Shown here: positions 10,339 to 55,469 of the stretch, piece after piece
How the letters are laid out: every line of letters begins with the position of its first letter
Position numbering within the stretch: position 1 is the stretch's first letter
Assembly: GCA_947258655.1 (NCBI GenBank)
Contig: CAMYJD010000006.1
Location: 68,902-132,901 of the forward strand
Direction of reading: 5' to 3'
From: an uncultured Gammaproteobacteria bacterium
GTDB lineage: Bacteria; Pseudomonadota; Gammaproteobacteria; JAADHQ01
DNA: 64,000 nucleotides
Notes under the pieces: generated by a model
What the model was told of the DNA's origin: nothing
What the model saw: only the letters and a program-made list of their open reading frames with translations
The model's database searches: none
Program-made: the position numbers and the translations under genes

Positions 10339-10417
10339 TAGTCAGATGCGTAGGCATGTGGTAATGCAGCAATCAACAGCATATAGAACGGATTAATTTA
10401 CAAAAAGGTATATTTGA

Positions 10418-40849: not shown

Positions 40850-40990
40850 TCCAGATACAATTGTGGATGAACAAGTCAGCGATTATACGAAGATTTGACC
40901 CATTATGCAGCATTAAATGTCAGGGCCAGACACTGTAGTGTTACGAGTATGAGGTAGGGGGACATGCGTAGACTGATAGGGAAGTAGGGC

Positions 40991-41030
40991 ATAAAAAGGT
41001 GCCTGTGACCACAAAGGATACACAGGCACA
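40991..41030 (-). terminator. Probable terminator after the ABC ATPase gene
   Basis: gtgcctgtg...cacaggcac stem followed on the minus strand by a U run. Confidence 0.55.
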
Positions 41031-41062
41031 AACCCATTGACGAACTGTAAAAAAATTAATAT

Positions 41063-41980
41063 TTAATCATTAACGGCGTACAAGACGGGAGCGTCATCCT
41101 CCTTTTTTTGTTTGTCTTGTACCTCCGCTTTTTCTTCGCTGGCCATTGCCGTTTCTGCGTCAACGTCAGAACCGGAGTCCGCTTCTTCCTCGGCTTCCGG
41201 GTTTTTGTAACGCTCATGCAGGAAGCGCACGACTTCGGCGCGGTAGTGGTTATATTCAGGGACTTCTGCCAGTGCCAGTCGATCCCTGGGGCGCTCGAGG
41301 TCGACCTTGAGGATCTCACCGACCGTGGCCGCCGGGCCATTGGTCATCATGACGATGCGGTCTGACAATAAAACGGCTTCATCGACATCATGAGTAATCA
41401 TGATGACGGTGTTATTGAGTTCCGCCTGAATTTCCATTAGCGAGTCCTGCATGTGCGCGCGCGTCAGTGCATCCAGAGCTCCAAAAGGTTCATCCATCAG
41501 CATGACCTTCGGCTCCATAGACAATGCACGGGCAATACCGACACGCTGCTTCATGCCGCCTGATAATTCATCAGGGCGTTTATCCATGGCATGTGACATA
41601 TGCACCAGTTCCAGATTATGTTCGATCCATTCCTTCATTTCTTCCTTGCTTTTCTGGTTCTTGAAAACCTGCTTGACGGCCAGTTCTACGTTTTCATAGG
41701 CTGTCATCCAGGGTAACAGGGAGTGGTTCTGGAAAACGACCGCGCGGTCCGGTCCGGGTTCGCTGACTTCCTTGCCATTGAGTATTACACCGCCTTCGGT
41801 GGCCTGGTGTAATCCGGCGATAATATTCAGCACTGTGGATTTACCGCAGCCGGAGTGGCCGATCAGGGAGATGAACTCGCCTTTTTCGATGCTCAGTTTT
41901 ACCTTGTCCAGTGCCCTGAAAGGCCCGTTGGGTGTCGGGAAGTCAATCGTGACATGTGAAAGTTCCAGATATGAATCCAT
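41063..41980 (-). CDS. Nitrate/nitrite-type ABC transporter ATP-binding protein (NrtC/D, NasD-like)
   Basis: GHSGCGKS, VFQNHSLLPW, LSGGMKQRVGIARAL, DEPFGALDALTR. Confidence 0.9.
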   Translation of the reverse strand: MDSYLELSHVTIDFPTPNGPFRALDKVKLSIEKGEFISLIGHSGCGKSTVLNIIAGLHQATEGGVILNGKEVSEPGPDRAVVFQNHSLLPWMTAYENVELAVKQVFKNQKSKEEMKEWIEHNLELVHMSHAMDKRPDELSGGMKQRVGIARALSMEPKVMLMDEPFGALDALTRAHMQDSLMEIQAELNNTVIMITHDVDEAVLLSDRIVMMTNGPAATVGEILKVDLERPRDRLALAEVPEYNHYRAEVVRFLHERYKNPEAEEEADSGSDVDAETAMASEEKAEVQDKQKKEDDAPVLYAVND

Positions 41981-41997
41981 ATTAGTTTCTCCTCAGA

Positions 41998-43020
41998 TTA
42001 GCGAATCACAGCACTCTTGTCCCAACTGATAGACTTCTGCAACATTAGCATCAGCCTGTCCAGCAGGAAGCCGACAAGTCCTATGGTAAATACCGCGACC
42101 ATGATTCTGGCCAGTGAGTTGGAACTCCCATTCTGGAATTCGTCCCAGACAAATTTTCCCAGGCCCGGGTTCTGAGCGAGCATTTCCGCAGCAATCAGTA
42201 CCATCCAGCCGATACCCAGCGATACGCGCAGACCAGCAAACATCATCGGGATTGATGACGGGATGACAATCTTGAATACCTTGGTTAGCCATGTCAGCCT
42301 GAGGACCTTGCTGACATTGATCAGGTCCTTGTCGATTGACGATACACCGACAGTTGTATTGATAATGGTTGGCCACAGGCAACATAGGGTAACTGTAATG
42401 GCCGAATTCAGATATGACTTGTCGAACATCGGGTCATCACTGACATACACGGCACTGACAATCATCATTACTATCGGCAACCAGGCCAATGGAGACACAG
42501 GTTTGAATATTTGTATCAGGGGATTTAATGCCGTGTATATCAACGGACTCAGGCCGCACATTATACCGATGGGAATGGCGATTAATGATGCGATCAAGAA
42601 GCCGGTCATTACTGTGTAAATACTGGTCCATATTTGATCCAGATAGGTTGCTTTGCCTGTATAGGGCCTGATTTTAATTTCTGCATCAGGGTTCTGGGCC
42701 AGTTTTTTTGCGTTTCGTTTTTCCTGCCTTTCGTAAAAAGCAGCTTCTTTTTGCCGTTCCTCTTTGTGTTCATCCAGCAGATTGACTGCCTGTTCCCAGA
42801 CCTGGGTGGGTCCAGGTACGGCGCCAAGCGATGTTTTTATCTGGCTGGCGCCTGCGGACCACAGTAACAGGAAAATGCCGAGTGCCACTAATGGTGTGAC
42901 AATTGCTTTCAATAACTTGTTTATTTCCTCTGCCTTGTTGGGCCCGGTAAATATACGTAAAAAGGGCTCAATCAGCATGTTATGTAGGGCAGAAAAATTT
43001 TTCATAAATAATGTAGTCAT
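41998..43020 (-). CDS. Nitrate/nitrite-type ABC transporter permease (NrtB/NasE-like)
   Basis: FKPVSPLAWLP, LWPTIINT, GWMVLIAAEML, GLGKFVWDEFQNG. Confidence 0.9.
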   Translation of the reverse strand: MTTLFMKNFSALHNMLIEPFLRIFTGPNKAEEINKLLKAIVTPLVALGIFLLLWSAGASQIKTSLGAVPGPTQVWEQAVNLLDEHKEERQKEAAFYERQEKRNAKKLAQNPDAEIKIRPYTGKATYLDQIWTSIYTVMTGFLIASLIAIPIGIMCGLSPLIYTALNPLIQIFKPVSPLAWLPIVMMIVSAVYVSDDPMFDKSYLNSAITVTLCCLWPTIINTTVGVSSIDKDLINVSKVLRLTWLTKVFKIVIPSSIPMMFAGLRVSLGIGWMVLIAAEMLAQNPGLGKFVWDEFQNGSSNSLARIMVAVFTIGLVGFLLDRLMLMLQKSISWDKSAVIR

Positions 43021-43056
43021 AACAATATACCAATGGGATAGATTTTGATTTATTAT

Positions 43057-43082
43057 TACCTCCCCTAATAATCGGGGAGGTA
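43057..43082. terminator. Intercistronic hairpin between binding-protein and permease genes
   Basis: tacctcccc-taataatc-ggggaggta. Confidence 0.55.
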
Positions 43083-43092
43083 TATAGTCTTA

Positions 43093-44496
43093 CTAGATTT
43101 TCTCCTTACCTTTCAATCCTATCTTGAACTTCTTCAGATAATCATTCGGCTTTTTACCATCATAGGTAATGTTGTCGATGAAATGCGTTTGCGGAGCACG
43201 GAATCCGTCTTCCTTGGCAAAGTCTGGGAATTCAGAGGCCTTCAGTTTACCTTCCGCAATCAGCTCTTTCGCCGCCGTTGCATAGATGTCCGGACGATAG
43301 ACCTTCTTGGCAATATCCATGTACCAGCTGTCCGGTTTCTGTTCCGAGATCTGACCCCAACGACGCATCTGGGTCAGATACCAGATAGCATCACTGTAAT
43401 ACGGGTAGGTAGCGAAATAACGGAAGAACACATTGAAGTCAGGTACTGCACGTTTGTCGCCTTTTTCGTATTCGAATGTACCGGTCATACTGTTGGCGAT
43501 AACATCATAATCAGCGCCGACATACTCGGACTTGGCCAGGATCTTGACCGCTTCAGGACGATTGGCATTGTTTTTGTCATCCAGCCACTTGGCTGCACGA
43601 ATCATCGCCTTGACCACGCGGATATGGGTGTTCGGGTTCTTGTCTGCCCATTTCTTACTGACGCCGAATACCTTTTCAGGGTTGTTTTTCCAGATTTCGT
43701 AGTCGGTGATGACCGGAACACCAATGCCCTTGAATACGGCCTGCTGGTTCCAGGGCTCACCTACGCAATAACCGTAGATGGTTCCCGCTTCCATGGTAGA
43801 AGGCATTTGTGGGGGAGGTGTAACCGACAGCAAAACATCGGCCTTGATTTGTCCCTTGATGTCACCCTTGTGCGGGGCATAGTAGCCGGGATTGATGCCG
43901 CCGGCAGCCAGCCAGTAACGCAGTTCATAGTTATGTGTGGATACCGGGAAAACCATGCCCATCTTGAAGGGTTTGCCGTCCGCCTTGTACTGATCCACGA
44001 CCGGCTTCAGGTAATCGGCCTTGATCGGATGAACCGGCTTGCCGCCCTTGTGCGGGACGTGCTTTTTCATTTCTTTCCAGATCTTGTTGGAAACGGTAAT
44101 GCCGTTACCGTTCAGATCCATACTGAATGCAGTAATAATGTGGTCCTGGGTACCGAAACCGATCGTAGCACCGAGCGGTTGACCGGCGAGCATATGGGCA
44201 CCATCCAGTTCGCCATCGATGACGCGGTCCAGCAATACCTTCCAGTTCGCCTGGGCTTCCAGCTTCACGTACAGGCCTTCGTCTTCGAAATAGCCTTTTT
44301 CATAGGCGATCGCGAGCGGCGCCATATCGGTTAATTTGATAAAGCCAAATTTCAGATCTTCCTTTTCTGGCTCTCCCACAGCGGCGTGGGATGCACTGGT
44401 CATCATGCCAAATCCGATGGCTGCGGCCATGGCAGTTTTCGCCAGGCTCTTACCCAGACTCAAGGGCCTTGAGTTGTCCGGTTTAAACTTCGTCAT
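43093..44496 (-). CDS. CmpA/NrtA family ABC substrate-binding protein (nitrate/nitrite)
   Basis: Signal peptide; [50 protein letters not shown]. Confidence 0.9.
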
Positions 44497-44535
44497 TGAT
44501 ATCTCCTCTGTTTGGAGTAATTGATTATTAAGGTC

Positions 44536-44621
44536 AAAAAAAAGGCCCAGTCATGCATCTCCGCAAAGACATGCATGATTGGACCTCGTTATCCTGTGTC
44601 AGCGAGACCGCCGTTGGCCTC
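44536..44621 (-). promoter_or_regulatory. ANTAR (NasT) dual-hairpin attenuator with terminator
   Basis: Minus strand GAGGCC-AACGGC-GGUCUC and GGAU-AACGAG-GUCC hexaloops; the second overlaps the 5' arm of terminator GAGGUCCAAUCAUGCAU...AUGCAUGACUGGGCCUUUUUUUU. Confidence 0.85.
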
Positions 44622-44665
44622 ATGTATATAGTACCCGGAGGTAGTATATTGCTGCTTGCTTATAT

Positions 44666-44682
44666 TGCAGTAATTATGCCAG
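44666..44682 (-). promoter_or_regulatory. Sigma54 promoter of the ABC transporter operon
   Basis: CTGGCATAATTACTGCA (GG-N10-GC). Confidence 0.8.
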
Positions 44683-44765
44683 ATATGGCCTGTGATTTAT
44701 CTTGTTGTTTTGTATTAATATATAGAAATGTGCGCGATATTGTCGTGGCGCTGATGTCAATATAT

Positions 44766-44801
44766 TGCACAATAATAGGGCTGCTGCACCTCAATAGTGC
44801 A
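44766..44801. promoter_or_regulatory. Tandem NtrC-like enhancer sites
   Basis: TGCACCTCAATAGTGCA (44785-44801) plus weaker TGCACAATAATAGGGCT; about 100 bp upstream of the sigma54 promoter. Confidence 0.7.
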
Positions 44802-44808
44802 ATGGATT

Positions 44809-45393
44809 TCAGGAAAGCAGGTCAAATGTGGCGATAATCCCTTCGGCGATTTCCGCAATGCGTTTGTTCTTGTCCATGGCCATTTTACGCAATGCCTGGT
44901 AGGCCTCGTCCTCTGAATATTGCTTGTGCTGCATCAGTAAGCCCTTGGCCTTGTCGATGACCTTGCGTTCTTCGAGTTGTGTGCGCGTCTTGACCAGGTC
45001 CAGTTTAAGCTTCTGCACCTCGGCAAAACGCGTTACCGCTACCTGTAATATAGACTTGATCCGCTGGGCCTCAAGCGTGCCGACGATATAGGTTGCAACA
45101 CCGTTCTTGATGGCTTGCTCTATGATCTCGTCTTCATTGGACCCGGTAAACAGTATGACCGGCACCGAAAAGCCCTGGTTGATGCTCCTGATTTGTTGCA
45201 ACAGGCTACCGTCCAGTTGCTCGACTTCGATAATAATGGCATCAGGTACGTTGTTGTCTAGATGGGCATGAATATCCTGGTCGTTGGTCATGGTCTCTAT
45301 CTTGTCGACACCGATACTCGTCAATGTTGCCTTGAGTTCATCCGCAGGATCAACTTCCTGCAAAACGAGCAAAATTTCTTTAATTCCAGTCAT
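44809..45393 (-). CDS. nasT: ANTAR-domain response regulator NasT
   Basis: Receiver-like N-terminus plus ANTAR LEERKVIDKAKGLLM...EDEAYQALRKMAMDKNKRIAEIA; start refined to MTGIKE; adjacent to nitrate ABC genes. Confidence 0.88.
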   Translation of the reverse strand: MTGIKEILLVLQEVDPADELKATLTSIGVDKIETMTNDQDIHAHLDNNVPDAIIIEVEQLDGSLLQQIRSINQGFSVPVILFTGSNEDEIIEQAIKNGVATYIVGTLEAQRIKSILQVAVTRFAEVQKLKLDLVKTRTQLEERKVIDKAKGLLMQHKQYSEDEAYQALRKMAMDKNKRIAEIAEGIIATFDLLS

Positions 45394-45431
45394 GTCAGCT
45401 ACTTGCTTGTCAGGAGATAAGCAATAAGTTA

Positions 45432-45448
45432 GGCAACTATTATGCCAA
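45432..45448 (-). promoter_or_regulatory. Sigma54 promoter of nasT
   Basis: TTGGCATAATAGTTGCC (GG-N10-GC); NtrC-like CGCACTGTATCTGTGCA at 45553-45569. Confidence 0.7.
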
Positions 45449-45660
45449 TACGATCCGGGCCGGTAATTTGATATGCCTATAGCTGTTTCACGGATCGCAA
45501 ACGGATATTGTTTGACACGGTCAAGAATGAGGCGATCCAACAATGCCGCGTGCGCACTGTATCTGTGCAGTATCTGGCATAATAATATATGCGCGGACGA
45601 ATTTGGTGCGGCTATGTCCATCAGATAAGCATAAGCCTATGGTCTATCTCCATTGAAAAG

Positions 45661-45677
45661 TAGGCAAGCTTATTGCA
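45661..45677 (+). promoter_or_regulatory. Possible sigma54 promoter of glgC
   Basis: TAGGCAAGCTTATTGCA (GG-N10-GC) about 35 bp before the ATG. Confidence 0.5.
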
Positions 45678-45712
45678 TTGGCAGAACATAGATAACTAAT
45701 GGAAACCTGTTT

Positions 45713-46933
45713 ATGCTTGAAGAAACCCTGACATTTATTCTTGCGGGTGGCGCCGGATCAAGACTGCAACCACTGACGTCGGATCGCGCCAAGCCTGCTG
45801 TACCCTTCGGTGGAAAATATCGCATTATCGATTTTACCCTGGCCAACTGCTTGCACTCCGAACTGCGGCGTATTCTCGTGCTGACACAGTACAAATCGCA
45901 TTCATTACAGAAACATCTGCGAGACGGCTGGTCGGTATTCAACCCTGAGCTGGGCGAATATATCACTACCATCCCTGCCCAGATGCGCAGAGGCCTGGGC
46001 TGGTATGATGGTACGGCGGATGCGATTTATCAGAACCTGTATCTGATAGAACGCAGTGGGGCAAAATATGTCCTGATCCTGTCCGGTGACCATATATACC
46101 GTATGGACTATGCACCACTGATCAAGGCGCATGTGGACTCCGGTGCAGCAGCGACTATCGCCTGCATGAATGTCGATCTTGAACAGGCATCCGCATTTGG
46201 GGTGATGGAGATCGATACCAATAATCGCATTGTCGATTTCCAGGAAAAACCGCCGAATCCTGCACCGCTGTCCGATCAGGCAGAGCAGGCGTTGGTATCG
46301 ATGGGTATCTATGTCTTTTCCATGGATATGTTGAAGGAGCTGCTGGAAAAGGATTCCAGTGATGACAAATCCACGCATGATTTTGGTCGGGACATCCTCC
46401 CGGGGCTTATCAGGCAACAGCCGGTATATGCCTATAGCTTCGGTGGCCATGCGGGGCGTGTTTCGCAGGATAACTACTGGAAAGACGTGGGTACGATCGA
46501 TTCCTATTATGAGGCGAATATGGACCTGTTAAAGGCCGTGCCACCACTGAACCTGTATCAGGATGACTGGCAAATCCGCACCTATCAATCACAGACGCCA
46601 CCGGCAAGAACAGTGCCAGGCGAATCAGGGACCGAAGGTATTTTTATTAATTCTATAGTCGCAGGTGGAACGATTATCGCGGGCGGGAATATCTCGCATT
46701 CGATTATATTCAAGAATGTATTCGTTGACGATGATGCATTTGTTGAAAACTCATTGTTGTTTGATGGCGTGCGTATCGGAAAAAACACAAGAATCAATAA
46801 CTGTATTATTGAAAAGCATGTGCATGTCCCTGATGATGAAGTGATTGGCTATGATATTGAGCAGGACCGTCAGCGCTTCAGTGTATCGGATAAGGGTATA
46901 ACGGTGATTCCTAAAGGCTATCGTTTCACCTGA
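45713..46933 (+). CDS. glgC: Glucose-1-phosphate adenylyltransferase (ADP-glucose pyrophosphorylase)
   Basis: [64 protein letters not shown]. Confidence 0.95.
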
Positions 46934-46995
46934 ATCTGATTCTAAGCGCGGCCAACGTAAAGTTGGAGTGCGTGAATCATCAAATGTGTGCATTA

Positions 46996-47080
46996 TGCAC
47001 AACGATTGTGCAGCTTGAGGTCTCTAATCTATAGCGGTCCTGCTAAAACATTGATTTATCGGTCTGGCATGAAACATGCT
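46996..47080 (+). promoter_or_regulatory. NtrC-like site, IHF-like site and sigma54 promoter of the oxidoreductase/cytochrome operon
   Basis: TGCACAACGATTGTGCA (46996-47012); AATCAATGTTTTA on the minus strand (~47044-47056); CTGGCATGAAACATGCT (47064-47080). Confidence 0.78.
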
Positions 47081-47085
47081 AAATG

Positions 47086-47200
47086 TTACCCGTGACCAAA
47101 GGCGGTCACGGTAATTTTAAAACTTCGGGACATTGATCCCGATCGAGGCAAAGGCGCCCATTGTGAGTCAATTTATTGGTTCATGAGAGGGCGTTTTTTT
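47086..47200 (+). promoter_or_regulatory. ANTAR (NasT) multi-hairpin attenuator with terminator
   Basis: CCGUGACC-AAAGGC-GGUCACGG, UCGGGA-CAUUGA-UCCCGA and GGC-AAAGGC-GCC; the last overlaps terminator GGCGCCC...GGGCGUUUUUUU. Confidence 0.85.
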
Positions 47201-47214
47201 ATGAGTACAGGTAC

Positions 47215-49197
47215 ATGACTGCCGAAGTATTGAAGCAAGAGCAACAGTATGCACGCAAGTCCTTCGATATTATCGTCGTTGGCATGGGCCCTGTCGGGCT
47301 GCATTTTCTCCAGAAACTGATGGGTATGGATGCCGCGCTCGGTATCGCGGTCTTCGGTGACGAGCCGTGGCAACCCTACAACCGGGTAAAACTGTCTTCA
47401 TTGTTATCAGGAGATATCAGGGAAGAATCCTTATACGAAGCCAATGCGATTCTGGATAATGCGTCCGTATATCCTTTTTATAATAACCGGATTGTATCAA
47501 TCGATCGTTATGCCCATGAGGTCGTAGACAGTCAGGGCCAGAGATATGCATATGGCAAGCTTGTGCTGGCGACAGGTTCGAGTGCGCATATACCGGTTAT
47601 AGAGGGTGTGCAGCTGAACAATGTATTCCGCTTCCGTGACCTTCATGACGTAATGTCGCTGATGGGTAGAAGCGTGATGACGCGTACAACCGTCGTTATC
47701 GGCGGCGGCCTGCTCGGCCTGGAAGCAGCCAGGTCCATGCAGCGTTTCAATACCGATGTGCATGTCGTTGAACACGATATGTGGTTGATGTTCAAACAAC
47801 TGGATGACACAGCGGGCGCTTGTTTGCAGGAGCATATAGAGACTACCGGGATCAAGGTGCATACCAGTCAGCATGTTAAGAAAATCATCGGTGACGACAG
47901 AGTGACGGGTGTACAACTGGCAAATAATGAGACCATCGAATGCGATACGGTCATCCTTGCTACAGGTATTGTAGCCAATGTGCAACTGGCACTCGACTCT
48001 GGTTTGCACATCGGTAAAGGCATAAGGGTAAACGATAATCTGCAAACCAATGACAATGATATCTATGCTATTGGTGAATGCGCAGAGCACGATGAAAAGG
48101 TGTATGGCCTGGTCGGGCCTGGCTATGAGCAGGCTGCGGTTCTGGCGCATCATATTGAAGGCAGGAAGAGTGTTTATAAGGGTTCTGTCTCTGCGGCAAA
48201 ATTGAAGGTGGTAGGCTTGCCGGTATTTAGCGCCGGGGAAGTCGAGCAGGGGGAGAGCCATGTTGATAAGTATGTCTATCAGGATCAAGAGAAAAATATT
48301 TATCGTAAGCTTATTGTCAGAAACGGGCGTCTTCGAGGTGTCGTAGGTGTAGGCGAATGGCCTGGCATACATCGGTTTCAGGAAGCAATTGCGAAAAAGC
48401 GCCGCGTGTGGCCATGGCAGTCGGGCAGATTTATCGATGAAGGCATTATGTGGAATGATGTGCTGGCGGAAAATGTTATCGACTGGCCGGCATCTGCGAC
48501 GGTATGCAACTGCACCGGTGTAACACGTGGGCAGCTGGATCTGGCGCAAAGTAAAGGGGCAACGACAGTAGCGCAAATCGCGACGATGACATGTGCATCT
48601 ACCGTTTGCGGTTCCTGTAAAAACCTGATTGGCGATTATCTTGGTAGCAGTGCTGCGCCAGAACCGGTAAAGGGCTTCCGGATGCTGTTTATAGCCTCGT
48701 TGCTAGCAACGCTCGCTGCATTGTTGTTTTTTCTGTTTCCTGTTGTCGACTATACGAGCACCTCGCAGGCAGGCTGGTCCATTGATATGTTGTGGCGGGA
48801 CAGCTTTTTCAAGCAGGTGAGCGGATTTACGGTACTCGGCGTCGCCGCCTTTATCTCCGTCATCTCAATCCGTAAGCGGGTGCAGAAGCTTTTCAAGTTA
48901 TGGGAATTTACTTCCTGGCGGATCGTGCATGTCGTGCTCGGTCTGTTGGTGCTGGGTATTCTGTTTTTACATACCGGTTTTCGTATGGGCAATAATCTCA
49001 ATTTTGCCTTGATGTTGACATTCAGCAGCTTGTTGCTGGTGGGCGCAATTGCGGGTGTCGCGATTGCCTATGAGCACAGCTTGCCGAGAAGGCTGGCAAA
49101 ACATGTACGTTCAATCGCTCTGTGGTCGCATATCATTTTATTATGGCCGCTGCCGGCCTTGTTGGGCTTTCATATTCTGAAAACGTATTACTTTTAA
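47215..49197 (+). CDS. NirB-like FAD/NAD(P)H oxidoreductase with BFD-like [2Fe-2S] domain fused to a predicted di-heme-b membrane domain
   Basis: GMGPVG, YNRVKLS, GGGLLGLE, IYAIGECAE, VCNC...TVCGSC; C-terminal hydrophobic helices with H-x13-H pairs; no siroheme domain; start refined to MTAEVL. Confidence 0.8.
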   Translation: MTAEVLKQEQQYARKSFDIIVVGMGPVGLHFLQKLMGMDAALGIAVFGDEPWQPYNRVKLSSLLSGDIREESLYEANAILDNASVYPFYNNRIVSIDRYAHEVVDSQGQRYAYGKLVLATGSSAHIPVIEGVQLNNVFRFRDLHDVMSLMGRSVMTRTTVVIGGGLLGLEAARSMQRFNTDVHVVEHDMWLMFKQLDDTAGACLQEHIETTGIKVHTSQHVKKIIGDDRVTGVQLANNETIECDTVILATGIVANVQLALDSGLHIGKGIRVNDNLQTNDNDIYAIGECAEHDEKVYGLVGPGYEQAAVLAHHIEGRKSVYKGSVSAAKLKVVGLPVFSAGEVEQGESHVDKYVYQDQEKNIYRKLIVRNGRLRGVVGVGEWPGIHRFQEAIAKKRRVWPWQSGRFIDEGIMWNDVLAENVIDWPASATVCNCTGVTRGQLDLAQSKGATTVAQIATMTCASTVCGSCKNLIGDYLGSSAAPEPVKGFRMLFIASLLATLAALLFFLFPVVDYTSTSQAGWSIDMLWRDSFFKQVSGFTVLGVAAFISVISIRKRVQKLFKLWEFTSWRIVHVVLGLLVLGILFLHTGFRMGNNLNFALMLTFSSLLLVGAIAGVAIAYEHSLPRRLAKHVRSIALWSHIILLWPLPALLGFHILKTYYF

Positions 49198-50588
49198 TGA
49201 AGCATTCAAAACTCTGGCTGCTATGGCTGACAATAATCGTGATATCAGGCGCATATTTAACATACCTGCTTATTGATGGTGAGGATAAAACCATGTTCAT
49301 GCCCGGTGCCATGACAGGTGGGCATCATCAGATAGGTGTTGCCTGTGAAGCCTGTCATACGGATTCATTCACGGATAAGGAAGATATGCAGAAGGCATGT
49401 GAAAGCTGTCATGGCGAGCAGCGCAAGAAACCGTTTGATTCGCATCCGCGCGCGAAATTTACCGATCCTCGTAATGCGGACCGGTTGGAAAATATTGATG
49501 CGTTGCATTGCATCACCTGCCACGTCGAACACAAACCGGAAATAACGCAAAAGACCGGCCTGACACAGCCTGTCGATTTTTGTGTGCATTGTCATCAGGA
49601 TATAGCCGAAGAGCGCCCGAGCCATGCGGGTATGGGCTTCGAGACCTGTGCCAGTGCGGGTTGTCACAACTTTCATAATAATCGTGCCCTGTATACAGAC
49701 TTCCTGGTCAAGCATATGCATGAAGCGGATATGCTCGACAAACAGAAAATGCCGGCACGGGAATTTGCCAGTGTGCTTGAAGATATCGCGACCTATCCGC
49801 ATGACCGTTATCCGGTTGGCAAGCTGGAAGTGAAAGATATGGATGCCCCTGAAGGCATGCAGGTCGCGGATGATATTGTGCATGACTGGGTCACGACGGC
49901 ACATGCCGGTTCGGGTGTAAATTGTACTGCCTGTCATATGGTCAGCGGGGAAGATGATAAAAAGGTATGGGATGACCACCCCGATCATCGTGCCTGTCAG
50001 ACATGTCATGATATTGAAGTGAACCAGTTTATGCAGGGCAAGCATGGCATGCGTCTGAAGTCAGGTCTTTCGCCGATGACGCCCGCTCAGGCCCGCTTGC
50101 CGATGAAGGCAGATTCACATGATACAGAACTGACCTGTAATACATGTCACCAGACACACGCCTACAAACTCGAGACTGCAGCGGTTGAGGCATGCCTCGG
50201 TTGTCATGATGACAAGCATAGCATAGCTTATAAGAATTCCTCGCATTATGAACTCTGGCAAAAGGAAAGCAAAGGTGAATTGCCTGAAGGCAGTGGCGTT
50301 TCGTGTGCCACCTGCCATATGCCGCGCACATCCATCGATGTCAGTGACTGGTTGCGACGCGTGGTCGTGCAACATAACCAGAACGCGACGCTTGTGCCGA
50401 ACGAGAAGATGATTCGACCGGTCTGTCTGAACTGTCACGGCCTTGGCTTCTCGATTGATGCGCTCGCAGATGAAGACCTGGTGCAGCGTAATTTCAAGGG
50501 CAAGCCATCCAAACATATTAACAGTATCGATATGGCGGAACAGGATAATAAAAGGCATTTGGAGGAAACCGGAGGTGAAACATTCTAG
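49197..50588 (+). CDS. Membrane-anchored/exported multiheme cytochrome c (10 CxxCH + 1 CX4CH)
   Basis: TAATG coupling to the upstream gene; N-terminal hydrophobic helix; CEACH, CESCH, CITCH, CVHCH, CASAGCH, CTACH, CQTCH, CNTCH, CLGCH, CATCH, CLNCH. Confidence 0.9.
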   Translation: MKHSKLWLLWLTIIVISGAYLTYLLIDGEDKTMFMPGAMTGGHHQIGVACEACHTDSFTDKEDMQKACESCHGEQRKKPFDSHPRAKFTDPRNADRLENIDALHCITCHVEHKPEITQKTGLTQPVDFCVHCHQDIAEERPSHAGMGFETCASAGCHNFHNNRALYTDFLVKHMHEADMLDKQKMPAREFASVLEDIATYPHDRYPVGKLEVKDMDAPEGMQVADDIVHDWVTTAHAGSGVNCTACHMVSGEDDKKVWDDHPDHRACQTCHDIEVNQFMQGKHGMRLKSGLSPMTPAQARLPMKADSHDTELTCNTCHQTHAYKLETAAVEACLGCHDDKHSIAYKNSSHYELWQKESKGELPEGSGVSCATCHMPRTSIDVSDWLRRVVVQHNQNATLVPNEKMIRPVCLNCHGLGFSIDALADEDLVQRNFKGKPSKHINSIDMAEQDNKRHLEETGGETF

Positions 50589-50660
50589 AACTGACATGGC
50601 TGACAGAGCCGTAACATGAATACAACATAATTTACACATGACTAAACAAGGAGACTTGAA

Positions 50661-51251
50661 ATGAACAAAACCAAACTGGCAGTAAGCATGGGCACGGCAA
50701 TCGCGATAGCCTCTGCGACGACAACACTAAATGCAGCAGGTGACATGGTGCCGGTCAAGGCCATGGCGGATGCATTGCATCTGGTAATGGACTCTGACCG
50801 TACAATCTATACACGCAAGATTGTCAATCGTCTGGTCAAGAAAGACAAGGTCATCAAGGCCAGTGAGCATTTTGAAGATGACAAGGCGCTGGTACTACCC
50901 GCACAAATGTTCCGCTTCGGCGCCGAGCTTGTACAAAAGCGCTCGGAAAAATTACCGGATGTGAATTTCAGTTATTCACTACAGTCGCTGTGGCCGGTGA
51001 ACAGGCAAAATGCACCGAAAACCAAGGCCGAAAAAGACGGCCTGAAGTTTGTCGCGGAAAACAAGGGTAAAAACTACTACACCGAGGAAACACTCGGCGG
51101 CAAGAAGTATTTTACTGCCGTTTATGCCGATACTGGTGTAGCGCCCGTCTGTGTGTCCTGTCATAACAAGCACAAGGACTCCCCGAAGCGTGACTTCAAG
51201 CTGGGCGATGTCATGGGTGGTGTGGTTATCCGTATACCGATTGACGGATAA
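50661..51251 (+). CDS. Tll0287/DUF3365-like periplasmic monoheme c protein
   Basis: Signal peptide; LPAQMFR, SLWPVNRQNAP, C-terminal CVSCH...FKLGDVMGGVVIRIP. Confidence 0.8.
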   Translation: MNKTKLAVSMGTAIAIASATTTLNAAGDMVPVKAMADALHLVMDSDRTIYTRKIVNRLVKKDKVIKASEHFEDDKALVLPAQMFRFGAELVQKRSEKLPDVNFSYSLQSLWPVNRQNAPKTKAEKDGLKFVAENKGKNYYTEETLGGKKYFTAVYADTGVAPVCVSCHNKHKDSPKRDFKLGDVMGGVVIRIPIDG

Positions 51252-51265
51252 TCGGGCATAATGTC

Positions 51266-51655
51266 ATGCGTTTGCCTGCCATAATATTATTTCCGGTGAT
51301 GCTCAGTTGTTGCCTGTCTGCAGTGGCGGATAATGCTGCATATATACACTTCGATGGAGACGCGCTCGCGAGCGGGCGTACGCTGTGGCTGGAAAACTGC
51401 GAGGGATGTCATGGTTATGGTGTGGCAGGCGCGCCAATACCGATGCAGGCAGATGAATGGAAGCAACGGGTGACAAAAGATAGGCAGGTATTATATGGCC
51501 ATGCTATCAACGGGTTTTTCGGACCTGACGACACCATGATGCCGGAAAGGGGGGGTAATCCAGAGCTCAGTGACGAGCAGGTCAAACGGGCAGTGGATTA
51601 CATGGTCGAGCTGGCGACATATTATATCAGGCAACAATCGAATCAATCTAAATGA
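51266..51655 (+). CDS. Cytochrome c5-like class I cytochrome
   Basis: Signal peptide, CEGCH..GVAGAP, HAINGF, MPERGGNPELSDEQVKRAVDYM. Confidence 0.88.
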   Translation: MRLPAIILFPVMLSCCLSAVADNAAYIHFDGDALASGRTLWLENCEGCHGYGVAGAPIPMQADEWKQRVTKDRQVLYGHAINGFFGPDDTMMPERGGNPELSDEQVKRAVDYMVELATYYIRQQSNQSK

Positions 51656-51688
51656 AATGACTAAATATCAAGTAGAGAGGAAATTAGT

Positions 51689-52102
51689 ATGACTCCGGAA
51701 CAAGTGAAACTGGTAAAAGATTCATGGGCCAAGGTGGCCCCGATCGCGGATACCGCCGCGGAACTGTTTTATGGCAAGCTGTTTGAACTGGATCCATCGG
51801 TCAAGCCGATGTTCAAGGGCGATATGACCGAACAGGGCAGGAAGTTGATGGCGATGCTGAACACAGCGGTCAATTCACTCGATAATGTCGAGGCCATAGT
51901 GCCGGCAATTCAGGCCATGGGTAAACGTCATGTCGGCTATGGTGTCAAGGATGAACATTATGATACGGTCGGCGAGGCGCTGATCTGGACCCTGGGTGCA
52001 GGTCTCAAAGACGACTTTACCGATGACACCAAGGAGGCCTGGGTTGCGGTATATACACTGGTATCGACGACCATGAAGGACGCGGCCTCTGAGGCTGCCT
52101 GA
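51689..52102 (+). CDS. Single-domain globin (flavohemoglobin-like globin domain)
   Basis: FY (B10 Tyr), PMF (CD1 Phe), EQGRKL (E7 Gln), GKRHVGYGV (F8 His), HYDTVGEAL. Confidence 0.92.
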   Translation: MTPEQVKLVKDSWAKVAPIADTAAELFYGKLFELDPSVKPMFKGDMTEQGRKLMAMLNTAVNSLDNVEAIVPAIQAMGKRHVGYGVKDEHYDTVGEALIWTLGAGLKDDFTDDTKEAWVAVYTLVSTTMKDAASEAA

Positions 52103-52130
52103 GCAGGTATAAACATCAGTAAAAGGATGT

Positions 52131-52156
52131 AAAACAGCCGGGTGACCGGCTGTTTT
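52131..52156 (+). terminator. Terminator after the globin gene
   Basis: aaaacagccgg-gtga-ccggctgtttt. Confidence 0.8.
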
Positions 52157-52204
52157 GCTTTATGCAATCAGAGCCGAATGGTAGTTACTTTTGTCGAAAA
52201 ATCC

Positions 52205-52385
52205 TGTCATTGCGAGCTTATAGGCCATACCTTTAAATAGTCTAATAACGGTCGCAGCGAAGCAATCTCCCCAATCCCGTATTGGGATATTGCATTGTCT
52301 GATAGAGAATGACTGCTGAAGCAGGTTGCCGCGCTACGACCGCCATATTATTTTTATTGAATGGCCTGTAAGCTCGCAATGATGG
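52205..52385. repeat. Long palindromic REP/RPE-like element (GTCATTGCGAG family)
   Basis: gtcattgcgagcttataggccat ... atggcctgtaagctcgcaatgat outer IR; inner cggtcgcagcgaagcaatct / aggttgccgcgctacgaccg IR. Confidence 0.75.
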
Positions 52386-52526
52386 CAATCTGTTACTCTG
52401 AAAGACATTATCATCTTAAGTAAGTGCCATTCCTATCAGATACTTATTTGCCGGTTTACAGGTTTTTCCATTTTCTGTGTTCTCGTGATATTTTTGCGAC
52501 AACTGTATGGATAGAATGTTTCCGGC

Positions 52527-53078
52527 ATGGACATGGACAATAAACAACAACTGGATGATCTGCTGGCCAGGACCGCGCTCGGGGACCAGTCTGCCTTTGA
52601 CCTGCTCTATCAACATACATCGTCTCTGTTGTACGCGATCGCGTTCAAAATCCTCAAAAAAACCGAATATGCGGAAGAAGCGCTGCAGGAAGCCTATGTC
52701 AGGATCTGGCATAATGCCGGCGAATATAATAGCGAAAAGGGCGCTGTGCTGACATGGATGGGGAGTATTGTGCGCTATCGTTGCCTCGATATGCTCAGAA
52801 AAGTGAAGCCGGAGGAATCCATTCATGGCAAATCCGAGTATATCATTATGGAAGATGAGGATCCCGGGCCGCTCGAACAGGCATTGATGGCCGGTGATGC
52901 GCGAGCCCTGATGGACTGCATTGAGTCACTACAAGAGAAACAACGTAGAAGCATACTGATGGCTTTTTATGAAGGTTTGACCCATGAGCAGTTATCGCGC
53001 TACCTCAGCGTGCCGCTGGGTACGGTGAAGAGCTGGGTGCGGCGCGGGCTCGATAAAATTAGGGAGTGCCTCGGTTAA
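52527..53078 (+). CDS. ECF sigma factor (SigK-like)
   Basis: GDQSAFDLLY, AEEALQEAYVRIW, IVRYRCLD, PLGTVKSWVRRGL. Confidence 0.92.
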   Translation: MDMDNKQQLDDLLARTALGDQSAFDLLYQHTSSLLYAIAFKILKKTEYAEEALQEAYVRIWHNAGEYNSEKGAVLTWMGSIVRYRCLDMLRKVKPEESIHGKSEYIIMEDEDPGPLEQALMAGDARALMDCIESLQEKQRRSILMAFYEGLTHEQLSRYLSVPLGTVKSWVRRGLDKIRECLG

Positions 53079-53764
53079 TGGTCAATGGTGTGGATGACAA
53101 TCGCTATGATCTGGCAGCCGAGTATGTGCTTGGCACATTGCGCGGTAATGCGCGTGTGCAATTCGAGCGTCTGTTACGTGAAGACGCCGAAATGCGTAAA
53201 CGTGTACACGAATGGGAGTCGAGATTGTTTGTGCTCAGTGACGGAATCGAGCCATTAAAACCGCATGCGCGCGTGTGGAAACGTATCCAGGCACGCGTAG
53301 CACCCCGAAGTGATATGCACAAGAGCCGCATTGGCTGGTGGCGGGCGTGGGCCCTGGCTGCCAGTGTCATGCTGGTTGTGCTCAGTGTCACAACCCTGCA
53401 GTTGCTGCAGCCCGAGGAAGGCTCGGCGCCTGCTGTTGTTGTTCTTAGCGATGAATCCTCCCGTGCCGGCTGGGTAGTGCACGCAGACTATGATAACAAA
53501 CAGCTTATTGCCCAGGCCCTGCAGATCAATGATCCGGGTGAGGGCAAGGCCTTCGAGCTGTGGATGCTGCCCAAGGACGAACCACCGAGATCGCTGGGAT
53601 TGTTGCCATTACAGGGTAAGCAGCACCTGGGCTTGAGTGCAGACAAACTGGCCGTGTTGCAGCGATCGGGCGCATTGGCTGTCAGTGTGGAACCGGCAGG
53701 TGGATCGCCTACCGGCTTGCCTACAGGTCCGGTCCTGTATCAGGGTAAAATATTGGAAATCTAG
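53078..53764 (+). CDS. Anti-sigma factor, RskA family
   Basis: LAAEYVLGTL, TM helix, ELWMLP..PRSLGLL, LAVSVEPAGGSPTGLPTGPV; TAATG coupling to the sigma gene. Confidence 0.9.
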   Translation: MVNGVDDNRYDLAAEYVLGTLRGNARVQFERLLREDAEMRKRVHEWESRLFVLSDGIEPLKPHARVWKRIQARVAPRSDMHKSRIGWWRAWALAASVMLVVLSVTTLQLLQPEEGSAPAVVVLSDESSRAGWVVHADYDNKQLIAQALQINDPGEGKAFELWMLPKDEPPRSLGLLPLQGKQHLGLSADKLAVLQRSGALAVSVEPAGGSPTGLPTGPVLYQGKILEI

Positions 53765-53854
53765 CCTTATCACGTACTTGCGCTTGCCTGCAACAGTATC
53801 TGCCGGATCGCCTGTCCGTGCTCCTGCCTGATTCGAAAAAAATAATAAATTTTT

Positions 53855-53880
53855 GCATCCGCCTTGCGTGCACGCACGTA
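53855..53880 (+). promoter_or_regulatory. Putative ECF-dependent promoter
   Basis: GCATCC-N16-CGTA upstream of the DUF4331-like gene, resembling SigK-group promoters. Confidence 0.5.
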
Positions 53881-53918
53881 TATATCCTCGAACCGATTAA
53901 TTGCTCGAGGAGAAGAGG

Positions 53919-55469
53919 ATGAAAAAACGTATTTTACATTGCGCTATGGCGATGGCAATGACAGCAGGCACAGGGATGTTAAGTATATCCCAGAGCTATG
54001 CATCCAGTCATCGTGAGGCACCCAACATAACACGTATGCCGAAAGTGGACTCCACTGACTTTTATATGTTTAATAGCTACGAGTCCGGACGTGAAGGCTT
54101 CGTTACCCTGTTAGCCAATTATGTGCCATTGCAGGATCCGCAGGGTGGACCCAATTATTTTTCCATGGATCCATCCGCGCTATATGAAATCCATATCGAT
54201 AATGATGGCGATGCCAAGGAGGATCTGACCTTCCAGTTCAGTTTCAGAAACAGGCTGAGTAATAACGGCAATGGTATCAGTCTCAATATTGGGCCTGATA
54301 GCGACAAGCAAACTGTGGCGATCCCGTTAAAGCATGCCGGCGGGATCGGTGTCAGCGCCGGAACAGCCAATCTCGGTTTTCTGGAAACTTATACCGTGAC
54401 CATGGTGAAGGGTGACAGGAGAAAGGGAACGAAACGAAGAATTTCCCATGCCGAAACGGGTGCGCGAAGATTTACCAAGCCGTATGACTATGTCGGTGAG
54501 AAGACATTTGGTGATGGAGCTGCCTATGAAAGCTATGCCAGTCAGTATATTAATCCGATCAGTGTGCCGGGTTGCGGTGAAGGCAAGGTATTTGTGGGGC
54601 AGCGCAAGGAGTCTTTTGTAGTCAATCTGGGTGAGACATTTGATCTGGTCAATTATGCGCCTATTGATGGATTGATAGACCAGAGTAAGGACAATGATGA
54701 TCTAAGAAACAAGAATATCACAACCATCGCGCTGGAATTGCCTGTGGACTGCCTGACCTCGGGATCTGATAGCATCATTGGCGGCTGGACATCAGCGAGT
54801 TTACGCCAGACGCGTGTTCTCAATCGGCGCGCAAGCTTCGCGAAACCCGAGTTCAATAAGGGTGCATTTACACAGGTATCCAGGCTCGGCAGCCCGTTGG
54901 TCAATGAACTGGTCATTGGTCTGAAGGACAAGGATCGCTTCAGTGTCAGTGAGCCAAAGGGTGACGGTCAGTTCGCAACCTATGTCACCCATCCCACCCT
55001 GCCGGCCTTGCTTGATATTCTGTTCAGGGAAGCCGTTGGTAGCACAGATAATATTGCGCCGACCAATTTTCCGCGCAATGACTTGATTGCAGCCTTTTTG
55101 ACAGGTATCGCCGGTGTAAACCAGCCGAAAGCGGTAGTGCCCTCCGAAATGCTGCGCCTGAATACTGCAATCGGGGCCGTGCCTGCGAGCCAGCAGAGTA
55201 CATTTGGTGTGGCCGGTGATGACCTGGCCGGTTTCCCGAATGGACGCCGTCCTGGTGACGATGTCGTTGATATCGCCCTGCGGGTGGTGATGGGACGATT
55301 ATGTCACCCGGTGCCGGTCAATGGTGTGGATACCGCGCTCGGTTTCTGTGAGCCGGGGCAGGCCATCGTCGGTACAGTTCCATTCACGGATGGAGCGCCT
55401 GTCAGTGCAGCAGATTTTAACGAGCAATTCCCATATCTACTGACACCAATTGCCGGATCACCCAATTAA
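53919..55469 (+). CDS. Secreted DUF4331-like protein
   Basis: Signal peptide ending SYA then SSHREAP, DSTDFYMF, QVSRLGSPLVNE, GFPNGRRPGDDVVD, FPYL. Confidence 0.82.
   Translation: MKKRILHCAMAMAMTAGTGMLSISQSYASSHREAPNITRMPKVDSTDFYMFNSYESGREGFVTLLANYVPLQDPQGGPNYFSMDPSALYEIHIDNDGDAKEDLTFQFSFRNRLSNNGNGISLNIGPDSDKQTVAIPLKHAGGIGVSAGTANLGFLETYTVTMVKGDRRKGTKRRISHAETGARRFTKPYDYVGEKTFGDGAAYESYASQYINPISVPGCGEGKVFVGQRKESFVVNLGETFDLVNYAPIDGLIDQSKDNDDLRNKNITTIALELPVDCLTSGSDSIIGGWTSASLRQTRVLNRRASFAKPEFNKGAFTQVSRLGSPLVNELVIGLKDKDRFSVSEPKGDGQFATYVTHPTLPALLDILFREAVGSTDNIAPTNFPRNDLIAAFLTGIAGVNQPKAVVPSEMLRLNTAIGAVPASQQSTFGVAGDDLAGFPNGRRPGDDVVDIALRVVMGRLCHPVPVNGVDTALGFCEPGQAIVGTVPFTDGAPVSAADFNEQFPYLLTPIAGSPN

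Follow-up and report, generated by a model that had tools for sequence, protein, structure and literature searches.

A NirB-type dehydrogenase fused to a four-histidine membrane domain: a candidate quinone-independent exporter of NAD(P)H electrons

Introduction

In the Fre-MsrQ-MsrP system a cytoplasmic flavin reductase feeds a haem b membrane protein, which in turn reduces a periplasmic enzyme. MsrQ and the bacterial NOX are of the ferric-reductase-like domain (FRD) type, and to our knowledge these are the sole bacterial quinone-free routes for NAD(P)H electrons across the inner membrane. Two transmembrane haems with bis-histidine ligation are classically held by two histidines at positions i and i+14 on each of two helices; NOX and the cytochrome b of the bc1 complex are examples. 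Here we analyse a gene in which the dehydrogenase half of a NirB-type nitrite reductase appears to be fused to a membrane domain with this histidine pattern. It was found in a window of 64,000 nucleotides (the whole stretch of DNA that was analysed) from an uncultured Gammaproteobacteria bacterium, positions 68,902 to 132,901 of the forward strand of contig CAMYJD010000006.1 in assembly GCA_947258655.1.

Based on domain content, conservation and structure models we propose, with a probability of roughly 65%, that the fusion protein is a single-chain flavo-iron-sulfur cytochrome b which exports NAD(P)H electrons across the inner membrane and bypasses the quinone pool. That a flavin dehydrogenase can deliver electrons to a pair of transmembrane haems is established, and what is new are the components and the partner protein. 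Full-text searches of the literature, limited to main texts, yielded no account of the fusion, of its operon or of the membrane domain.

A second system of relevance is NasC-Bjgb-Flp of Bradyrhizobium, in which the nitrate-assimilation genes, under the control of NasS-NasT (ANTAR), reportedly include those of a single-domain globin and of an NAD(P)H flavoprotein. It is reported as a defence against nitric oxide (NO) by globin and flavoprotein within a NasT-controlled nitrate cluster (PMC4724949).

Results

A NirB-type dehydrogenase half without the siroheme domains

The open reading frame of the fusion spans 47176..49197 (+) when it is read from a TTG. If translation begins at the ATG at 47215, the product is as long as most homologues (660 aa), and this ATG is likely the true start codon because the homologue lengths match and the T-run of the leader terminator (47194-47200) precedes it. 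Coordinates of all features are collected in Table 1. A first-pass annotation of this DNA had described the protein as the N-terminal half of NirB with another domain in the place of the siroheme domain, and the motifs that it named are present in the translation: VVGMGPVG (residues 21-28), GGGLLGLE (163-170) and CNC...CGSC (C431, C433, C465 and C468). The domain scan agrees with this description. The FAD/NAD(P)H module and a BFD domain were recovered, neither NIR_SIR nor NIR_SIR_ferr was matched by Pfam in the 660-aa fusion, and there is no Pfam match past residue 480. The solved proteins nearest to the dehydrogenase module are soluble ferredoxin and rubredoxin reductases and an entry named 'NirB-family N-terminal domain'.

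The best NCBIfam match is NirB TIGR02374. It aligns residues 19-480 with positions 1-469 of a model that has 794, and its 400.2 bits fall short of the cut-off of 578.35. This partial coverage together with the Pfam result points to a protein made of the NirB dehydrogenase half and one BFD cluster, with another domain replacing the siroheme half. A six-frame genome search with PF01077 gave matches on contigs C60 and C45 only and none in the window. Canonical nirB (an open reading frame of 810 aa), nirD and the gene of the molybdopterin nitrate reductase (nasA) stand together on C45, and the fusion is 35% identical to this NirB of its own genome over the 367 residues covered by the fetched locus. 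An identity of the fusion as NirB was rejected on three grounds: the missing siroheme domains, the score below the NCBIfam cut-off and the canonical nirBD-nasA genes elsewhere in the genome.

Homologues were searched with residues 485-660 as the only seed. This returned 127 proteins at E<=1e-3 among 8000 scored candidates, 120 of them listed, and nearly all of the listed ones are ~660 aa long and carry the same N-terminal Pfam domains as the fusion. For the conservation analysis 112 of the 120 were aligned (630-700 aa, overall identity 41-78%) and the 8 shorter ones were dropped. All four cysteines of the BFD domain are invariant in these full-length homologues (112/112). It had been expected that such proteins would be mislabelled, and this was borne out among the 120 listed homologues: 20 have a name, which reads 'nitrite reductase (NADH) large subunit' in 10 cases, 'FAD-dependent oxidoreductase' in 9 and '(2Fe-2S)-binding protein' in one.

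Two invariant histidine pairs lie in the helices of the membrane domain

The C-terminal domain contains the two histidine pairs that had been pointed out at first pass, HVVLGLLVLGILFLH (H572..H586) and HIILLWPLPALLGFH (H639..H653), both with the spacing i, i+14. The haem proposal had been tied to the conservation of these residues and to their place within membrane helices; none of the 112 full-length homologues departs from H572, H586, H639 or H653, more than chance would explain, and the four residues lie on transmembrane helices 3 and 5 (TM3 and TM5). Further positions that are invariant or nearly so in the same homologues are W527, K533, Q534, R553/K554/R555, W568/R569, T587/G588, G592, N596, W644/P645/P647 and Y658.

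An AlphaFold2 model of residues 475-660, built on our own alignment, has a predicted local distance difference test score (pLDDT) of 92.3 and a predicted template modelling score (pTM) of 0.86. It consists of five long helices (14-33, 56-78, 91-113, 120-144 and 151-185 in the numbering of the model), with the histidine pairs on helices three and five, and five hydrophobic segments are likewise seen in the hydropathy of the domain. The lysines and arginines per loop amount to 6 between TM2 and TM3, 4 between TM4 and TM5 and 1 in each of the other two loops, which fits a topology with the N-terminus inside and the C-terminus outside. According to these loop charges H572 and H639 would therefore be near the cytoplasmic face, and H586 and H653 near the periplasmic face. 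Topology and structure prediction had been named at first pass as the means to check the proposal, and the two together give a picture of five helices, the histidines inside them, and one pair near each face. The domain probably holds two haems b, the ligation being deduced from conservation and model. In a model of the full-length fusion the pLDDT is 85.6 and each domain is well predicted within itself.

The membrane domain has no detectable family, and its likeness to dihaem four-helix bundles is non-specific

The first-pass annotation had likened the domain to ferric-reductase-like and cytochrome b domains. The spacing of the histidines and their position in the helices are in line with this; a relation to the FRD family in particular could not be detected. 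PF01794 has no match on residues 475-660 at E<=10, and in the six-frame genome search it found only an MsrQ-like gene on contig C34. PF01292 (Ni_hydr_CYTB) in the same kind of search matched other genes and not the fusion. For profile-profile comparison with hhalign, alignments were made of 13 MsrQ-type FRD proteins and of 21 CybB-type proteins from genomes of the class, and the membrane family scored a probability of 0.9% against the former and 0.3% against the latter. A remote family of free-standing relatives, described below, reached 0.2% and 1.3%, respectively.

When the model was compared by VIA-align with 48,161 representative chains, E. coli CybB (5oc0_A) came third with a Z of 10.2 (root-mean-square deviation, rmsd, 2.9 over 126 residues; model residues 54-186). 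The matches listed by Foldseek, when looked at again, added cytochrome b6 (Z 8.9), HyaC (Z 8.7), STEAP1 (Z 7.8, rmsd 4.0, 120 residues) and NarI (Z 6.5). All of these Z values are in a range that the tool's own note calls non-specific for helical bundles. Every membrane protein near the top of the structural lists is a haem b bundle. On the whole, TM2-TM5 of the model have the look of a generic bundle of four helices for two haems, and there is no support for placing the domain in the FRD family.

The only Pfam signals of the free-standing relatives were sub-threshold ones, to DUF4405, to PF01292 and once to Ferric_reduct. DUF4405 (PF14358) was seen in 2 of 5 relatives tested (best E 3e-4; the relatives reach 21.6 bits, cut-off 26.7) and, also below threshold, in an FNR-type fusion from another genome (E 0.014); PF01292 was seen in 4 of the 5 (E 8e-4 to 0.2). 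Makarova et al. 2015 (PMC5898192) placed DUF4405 in the cytochrome b family. These affinities point faintly to the side of the prokaryotic cytochromes b561 and DUF4405. A feature search of the ESM Atlas gave best scores of 0.78-0.80, below the informative level; the cluster at rank 2 (229 aa, Fer2_BFD in 34% of its members) is only a hint of short forms.

Two other candidates, G022:C175:14664-15203 (-) and G026:C94:7892-8440 (-), came up in the PF01292 search and were rejected as members of the family, because tblastn found no homology to the window proteins. The open frames, 669 and 702 aa long, each have at their end a cytochrome b561 domain whose PF01292 score is above the cut-off.

The downstream cytochrome is a conserved neighbour and probable partner

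The start codon of the next gene overlaps the stop codon of the fusion, and this gene encodes a membrane-anchored multihaem cytochrome c. To sample the neighbourhood, the window was compared with 12 public loci, which hold 13 further copies as one locus (L012) carries two. The cytochrome gene stands directly 3' of the fusion gene in the window and in 13 of the 13 further copies (14/14). All 13 intact cytochromes have an N-terminal transmembrane helix, 10 CxxCH motifs, one invariant CxxxxCH and 11 further invariant histidines, and from these motif counts they are therefore probably 11-haem proteins. Two motifs, HGMR and PNEKM, are invariant and do not look like haem ligands.

The nitrite reductase family NrfA was looked for in the cytochrome and in the genome. 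PF02335 scores 17.6 bits on the cytochrome, below its cut-off of 24.1; it has no match in the six-frame genome search, and no convincing NirS was found in the genome either. Two stretches of the cytochrome weakly match solved NrfA and eight-haem nitrite reductases (E 2.4e-5 to 1.4e-4), and these matches are short and local. A NapC/NirT family match is absent from the Pfam result for the cytochrome.

A joint prediction with the downstream cytochrome had also been suggested at first pass. The membrane domain (alignment A3) was therefore modelled with two haems and residues 1-175 of the cytochrome (alignment A4). The complex passes its controls with a score of 0.69 (median of three runs, 0.67-0.71), compared to 0.00 for the best of 3 controls; the partner has a pLDDT of 75-77, and at least 98% of the contacts agree between runs. 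In calibration 58 out of 80 solved complexes came up to the mark, as did 2 out of 110 mismatched pairs, a yardstick that is rough here (own alignments, riding ligand). On the side of the fusion the interface involves residues 513-518, 592-596 and 644-660, that is the periplasmic loops and the end of TM5 beside H586 and H653; on the side of the cytochrome it involves the transmembrane helix (residues 10-25), a conserved LPG stretch (32-38) and the first haem motif (C50/H54). The model supports docking of the cytochrome at the periplasmic face of the membrane domain.

The same membrane unit occurs in three architectures

A profile of the membrane domain (A3: the window and the 13 locus copies) was searched against 1.84 billion representative sequences. 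This gave 1092 clusters (50% identity) at E<=1e-3, 583 of which have E<=1e-10 and 383 E<=1e-30. Among the best 150 of the 1092, 99 have the NirB-type module and BFD, and 5 have an FNR-type module. The other 46 are short proteins that consist of the membrane domain, in some cases together with BFD, and many of them are probably fragments. Pfam was run on ten of the listed matches. P0144 has three cNMP_binding domains, BFD, FAD_binding_6, NAD_binding_1 and the membrane domain, P0233 and P0237 are like it and carry cNMP domains, and P0146 joins an EF-hand, BFD and FNR to the membrane domain. From these FNR-type variants it follows that a different NAD(P)H dehydrogenase has been plugged in before the same BFD-plus-membrane unit. 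Such swapping of the dehydrogenase is expected if that unit acts as electron acceptor.

Genomes of the class were also surveyed. Of the 300 that were scored (G248 was not among them), 38 match at E<=1e-5: 18 strongly (E<=1e-46), one (G215) with an FNR-type fusion and 19 weakly only, with proteins of ~280-400 aa; the counts include one weak match in the unpublished genome G039. Seven surveyed loci were fetched. The FNR-type fusion of G215 is followed by a homologue of the window cytochrome, with 11 CxxCH and 32% identity (E 2e-56). Six free-standing relatives were examined, three of them with wider flanks. They keep TM1-TM5 and both H-x13-H pairs and have a large cytoplasmic insert before the last helix, and hhalign shows their homology to the family with a probability of 97.6% and an E of 3e-12 at ~28% identity. 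In the three loci with wide flanks the free-standing gene lies between an upstream gene for a protein with cNMP-binding and 4Fe-4S domains, which in L070 also has a Pyr_redox module, and the gene of an FHA-anchored 9- to 10-haem cytochrome. These loci appear to be an uncharacterised split version of the same conduit. A gene for an HbpS-like lipoprotein follows in L069 and L070.

The layout of an Fe-S donor inside, a four-histidine membrane protein and a multihaem cytochrome outside is thus seen in three architectures. On the sequence evidence the family is widespread and often mislabelled.

The operon lies among nitrate-assimilation genes

The genes for a stand-alone sCache_heme (Tll0287/DUF3365) protein, a small cytochrome c and a globin complete the operon. 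The Tll0287-like gene comes after the cytochrome gene in 12 of 13 copies from outside the window, the exception being L004, which stops at the contig edge. In a 2026 preprint stand-alone sCache_heme proteins are reported to behave as redox carriers with weak NO binding and to have no informative gene association, and their function is called hard to delineate (10.64898/2026.02.01.703092). The operon may give these proteins a genomic context. The single-domain globin resembles the N-terminal haem domain of NO-inducible flavohaemoprotein. In L012, a Thiohalomonadales metagenome-assembled genome, the module of fusion, cytochrome and sCache_heme genes is tandemly duplicated (1262-5282 and 6498-10614) beside nrtABC.

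Upstream of the fusion operon the genes of a NasT-type regulator and of a nitrate transporter are found on the other strand. Among the 12 loci, the flanks that were fetched include NrtA in 5 and NasT in 3. Since nirBD-nasA is on C45 and neither NirS nor NrfA was found, the operon is predicted to be accessory to nitrate assimilation and not its nitrite reductase. A hemerythrin-HHE-domain gene (Pfam) stands just upstream of the fusion in L006 (5275-6126 (+)), and proteins of the same BLAST cluster are encoded upstream in L010 (894-1442) and L011 (5884-6426); these three loci have no globin. Hemerythrin-domain proteins are often tied to NO or to the repair of iron centres. Near the nitrate-transport and fusion genes, L001 (5182-6516), L003 (5232-6425) and L002 (12791-14026) have the gene of an outer-membrane porin of the Alginate_exp family, which could be selective for anions and serve nitrate or nitrite. 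The GlgC-type gene that lies between nasT and the fusion operon in the window is an odd neighbour, not seen in the other loci. Past the operon terminator, the window has genes for an extracytoplasmic function (ECF) sigma factor, an overlapping anti-sigma-like gene and a DUF4331 protein gene (52527-55469 (+)).

In the leader of the fusion gene (47060-47215) two hairpins and a strong terminator with U7 are predicted. The fold has a z of -4.4 and is equalled by 0 of 200 shuffles. The nrtA leader (44520-44622 (-)) has the same plan (z -4.2). The 12-mer CCAAMGGCGGTC is common to both leaders, where it is part of a hairpin with a hexaloop that stands ~125 nt ahead of the start codon. The loop of the second hairpin of the fusion leader, CAUUGA, does not conform to an A1/G4 hexaloop. 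Leaders under ANTAR control (NasT/NasR) have as their consensus one or more hexaloop hairpins, A1 and G4 being in the loop, that precede an intrinsic terminator. The design of the fusion leader fits antitermination by NasT/ANTAR, and the case for it is weak. A canonical-looking pair of hexaloop hairpins is seen in the leader of the first copy in L012. Rfam has no match at E<=1 within 40000-56000 of the window.

Table 1. Features of the fusion operon, its surroundings and related loci. Positions refer to the window unless a locus is named.
Feature	Coordinates	Strand	Basis and remarks
Fusion gene, 660 aa: NirB-type dehydrogenase, BFD and four-histidine membrane domain	47215..49197	+	Open reading frame translation, Pfam, NCBIfam
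FAD/NAD(P)H pyridine-nucleotide-disulfide oxidoreductase module	47263..48399	+	Pfam scan: Pyr_redox_2, residues 17-294, E 5.1e-53; Rubredoxin_C, residues 328-395
BFD-like [2Fe-2S] domain, residues 429-476	48499..48642	+	Pfam Fer2_BFD, alignment; C431/C433/C465/C468 invariant
Membrane domain with five predicted transmembrane helices, residues 485-660	48667..49194	+	No Pfam match; AlphaFold2, hydropathy
Histidines of TM3	H572 48928-48930; H586 48970-48972	+	AlphaFold2, hydropathy
Histidines of TM5	H639 49129-49131; H653 49171-49173	+	Alignment, AlphaFold2
Membrane-anchored multihaem cytochrome c, 463 aa	49197..50588	+	N-terminal transmembrane helix, 10 CxxCH and 1 CxxxxCH; ATG overlaps TAA of the fusion (TAATG)
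Stand-alone Tll0287/DUF3365 (sCache_heme) c-type haem protein	50661..51251	+	PF11845, E 2.4e-19; signal-peptide-like N-terminus
Small monohaem cytochrome c, 129 aa	51266..51655	+	Signal-peptide-like N-terminus; in 5/13 copies outside the window
Single-domain globin, 137 aa	51689..52102	+	No signal peptide; in 6/13 copies outside the window
Terminator-like palindrome, 11 pairs, right after the globin gene	52131..52156	.	Likely the operon end
Leader hairpin CCGTGACC-AAAGGC-GGTCACGG	47090..47111	+	Fold; hexaloop A1/G4, ~125 nt before the start codon
Leader intrinsic terminator	47150..47200	+	Fold; long hairpin and T7, 14 nt before ATG
nrtA leader hairpin TGAGGCC-AACGGC-GGTCTCG	44603..44622	-	Fold; ~126 nt before nrtA, then terminator with U8
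NasT-type response regulator with ANTAR domain	44809..45621	-	Neighbourhood annotation
NrtCBA-type nitrate ABC transporter genes	41063..44496	-	Neighbourhood annotation
GlgC-type glucose-1-phosphate adenylyltransferase	45713-46933	+	Between nasT and the fusion operon
Free-standing membrane protein (276-312 aa in the three loci)	L069 4859-5689	-	Genome survey
Free-standing membrane protein	L070 4612-5550	-	Genome survey
Free-standing membrane protein	L071 4272-5114	+	Genome survey
FNR-type fusion	L068 2373-4895	-	BFD and FNR-type FAD/NAD module; cNMP-binding or EF-hand variants; genome G215

Discussion

The path that we propose for the electrons begins at NAD(P)H in the cytoplasm. They would pass to the FAD of the NirB-type module, from there to the [2Fe-2S] cluster of the BFD domain, and would then enter the membrane domain at the cytoplasmic-side haem b (H572, H639). 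From this haem they would cross to the periplasmic-side haem b (H586, H653) and leave for the 11-haem cytochrome c, which is translationally coupled and anchored in the membrane and would be docked outside. They would enter it at haem 1, and it could hand them on to the small cytochrome c and to sCache_heme, which is soluble. An NAD(P)H-driven transmembrane reductase had already been suggested at first pass, and this suggestion gains support from the domains, the invariant histidines in the helices and the complex model. Haem b binding, the electron transfer, the direction of flow and the terminal substrate are what we infer from sequence and models together.

Electron flow in the outward direction is favoured by redox potential and by membrane potential. 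The export would cost the cell NADH and some proton-motive force, as in NOX, and this cost would suit detoxification or assimilation and not respiration. A periplasmic reduction of NO, hydroxylamine or nitrite during nitrate assimilation is our tentative suggestion for the end use; removal of these compounds is favoured because of the nitrate-assimilation neighbourhood and the NO-type globin.

A number of points weigh against this proposal. The binding of haem, of FAD and of Fe-S is in each case deduced from sequence and model. Residues 475-660 scanned alone against Pfam at E<=10 give three unrelated sub-threshold rows, the search of PDB with the profile of alignment A3 (14 diverse domains) gives 0 chains at E<=10, and Foldseek with the membrane-domain model finds nothing in PDB at E<=0.001, with talin rod bundles as the top rows. 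In VIA-align soluble talin bundles score Z 10-11, as high as the dihaem cytochromes b. The arrangement of the domains in the full-length model is uncertain (pTM 0.61). On the periplasmic side no component with an evident catalytic site is encoded, CxxCK is absent from the cytochromes (0/13), where no obvious open haem site is seen, and 11 invariant extra histidines for 11 haems could make all of them bis-histidine. In L005 (6558-10408) neither the fusion nor the cytochrome is in one frame; both are broken over several, which could be decay of the operon or an assembly error. As to control by NasT, the 12-mer was derived from the two sites that it matches; genome-wide it has 3 matches, compared to 2 for the reversed control, and the third lies inside an ExbB-like coding region. 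A relaxed motif gave one further site only, also in a coding region, and is not enriched genome-wide. No correctly oriented hexaloop hairpin was found in the leader of canonical nirB, and a comparable leader of hairpins and T-run is present in only 3 of the 13 other copies.

The alternative that survives best, an unlikely one, is that the operon encodes a true nitrite (or hydroxylamine or NO) reductase of a new form. The 11-haem cytochrome would be catalytic like NrfA or the octahaem reductases and the fusion would be its dedicated NADH-linked donor, so that the label 'nitrite reductase' would be right in function, though the protein is not NirB. The nitrate-assimilation neighbourhood is in line with this idea, as is the descent of the fusion from the dehydrogenase half of NirB, and HGMR and PNEKM, invariant in the cytochromes, could line an active site. 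The weak matches to solved NrfA and eight-haem reductases also speak for it; against them stands the PF02335 score, below its cut-off, and the lack of a six-frame match of this family in the genome. The Lys-ligated CxxCK motif of the catalytic haem is the majority form in NrfA, and as said above it is missing from all 13 cytochromes, in which the extra histidines may occupy every haem. Moreover nirBD-nasA is already present on another contig, and assimilatory nitrite arises in the cytoplasm and not in the periplasm.

Quite unlikely in our view is that the haem b domain reduces quinone. The fusion would then be an unusual NADH:quinone oxidoreductase, and the cytochrome would be fed by quinol like CymA, NapC or NrfH. 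The best structural match among membrane proteins, E. coli CybB, is indeed a quinone-reactive dihaem cytochrome b561, and an N-terminal anchor with a membrane-adjacent haem is the layout known from quinol dehydrogenases, but the cytochrome has no match to the NapC/NirT family in Pfam. A quinone pool between the two proteins also agrees poorly with the overlap of their genes, with the adjacency of membrane domain and multihaem cytochrome in three architectures, and with a complex model that passes at the periplasmic face (0.69 vs 0.00).

It is very unlikely that the four histidines are no haem ligands and that the C-terminal domain is an anchor, or a metal-binding or transport module, for an NADH:[2Fe-2S] reductase that serves, for example, the globin. 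The domain has no detectable homology to any haem-binding family, and the single-domain globin of the operon needs a reductase, a task that Flp is reported to fulfil in Bradyrhizobium (PMC4724949). However, a mere anchor would hardly keep the four histidines, R569, T587/G588, N596 and W644/P645/P647 invariant or nearly so over 112 sequences, nor retain two H-x13-H pairs in relatives that are ~28% identical, and the globin is absent from 7 of the 13 other copies while the cytochrome is never absent. Least credible of all is an inward flow from a periplasmic donor through the haem c chain, the haems b, Fe-S and FAD to NAD(P)+. Every cofactor is reversible in principle, and some carriers seem to belong to lineages of sulfur oxidisers, which depend on reverse electron flow for their NAD(P)H. 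However, the electrons would move against the membrane potential and towards the NAD(P)+/NAD(P)H couple at about -320 mV, uphill on both counts, and no device that could couple this to a source of energy is seen. The relatives with FNR, EF-hand and cNMP domains, moreover, look like regulated NAD(P)H oxidases.

If quinone-independent export is the right reading, the family would be a second, unrelated solution beside the FRD-type proteins. It would supply a dedicated electron source for the conserved 11-haem cytochrome and give the stand-alone sCache_heme (Tll0287/DUF3365) proteins their first genomic context and a partner, and the variants with cNMP and EF-hand domains would suggest that electron export in bacteria can be regulated. 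It would also correct the recurrent misannotation as 'nitrite reductase large subunit', which inflates the capacity for nitrite assimilation predicted from metagenomes. The odds seem even for the boldest reading as a whole, in which the fusion is a founding example of an unrecognised and widespread class of bacterial NOX counterparts that are quinone-independent and built on a new family of dihaem membrane domains. On this reading the class would come in three forms, a NirB-type fused one, an FNR-type fused one gated by cNMP or Ca2+, and a split one. The cell would export reducing power to the periplasm on demand, and at this locus it would thereby destroy NO, hydroxylamine or nitrite formed in nitrate assimilation.

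Among the known systems, NirB shares with the fusion the FAD, NAD(P)H and BFD parts, that is the first 469 of 794 model positions aligned to residues 19-480. Where the fusion has its membrane domain, NirB has the siroheme/[4Fe-4S] half with NIR_SIR_ferr and NIR_SIR. With the cytochromes b561 the likeness is one of structure: TM2-TM5 superpose on CybB and HyaC, a superposition that does not discriminate since talin bundles score equally. Unlike CybB and DUF4405 proteins, the fusion has no HMM match to these families and an hhalign probability of 0.3% against the CybB type, it has an extra N-terminal helix, and its histidine pairs are on two helices only. The NasC-Bjgb-Flp system of Bradyrhizobium resembles the window operon in that both have a globin and an NAD(P)H flavoprotein near nitrate-assimilation genes and an ANTAR regulator. 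In contrast to the window operon it is wholly cytoplasmic, without a membrane haem domain, a multihaem cytochrome c or an sCache_heme protein.

In plan the proposed route is like that of NOX, DUOX and FRE, in which cytoplasmic NAD(P)H reduces a flavin and then two transmembrane haems b, with the N-terminus inside. As in NOX and FRE, each haem of the fusion would be held by one histidine from each of two helices (TM3 and TM5), with ~13 residues between the histidines on one helix, and relatives of the fusion carry an FNR-type dehydrogenase with EF-hand or cNMP domains; the form with EF-hand, BFD and FNR presumably resembles the Ca2+-regulated NOX5. The fusion differs from FRD proteins by the lack of a PF01794 match, by an hhalign probability of 0.9% against the MsrQ type and by five predicted transmembrane helices instead of six. 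Compared to NOX the order is reversed, since the dehydrogenase comes first in the chain, and this dehydrogenase is of the pyridine-nucleotide-disulfide class. Moreover, a BFD [2Fe-2S] cluster stands between flavin and haems, and the acceptor would be a multihaem cytochrome c and not O2 or Fe(III). With Fre-MsrQ-MsrP the proposed route has in common that a membrane protein with haem b takes NAD(P)H electrons to a redox protein of the periplasm and that the quinones are bypassed. In the fusion, however, the dehydrogenase would be part of the same chain, an Fe-S relay would be added, the membrane domain is not of the FRD family by HMM, and an 11-haem cytochrome would take the place of the molybdoenzyme.

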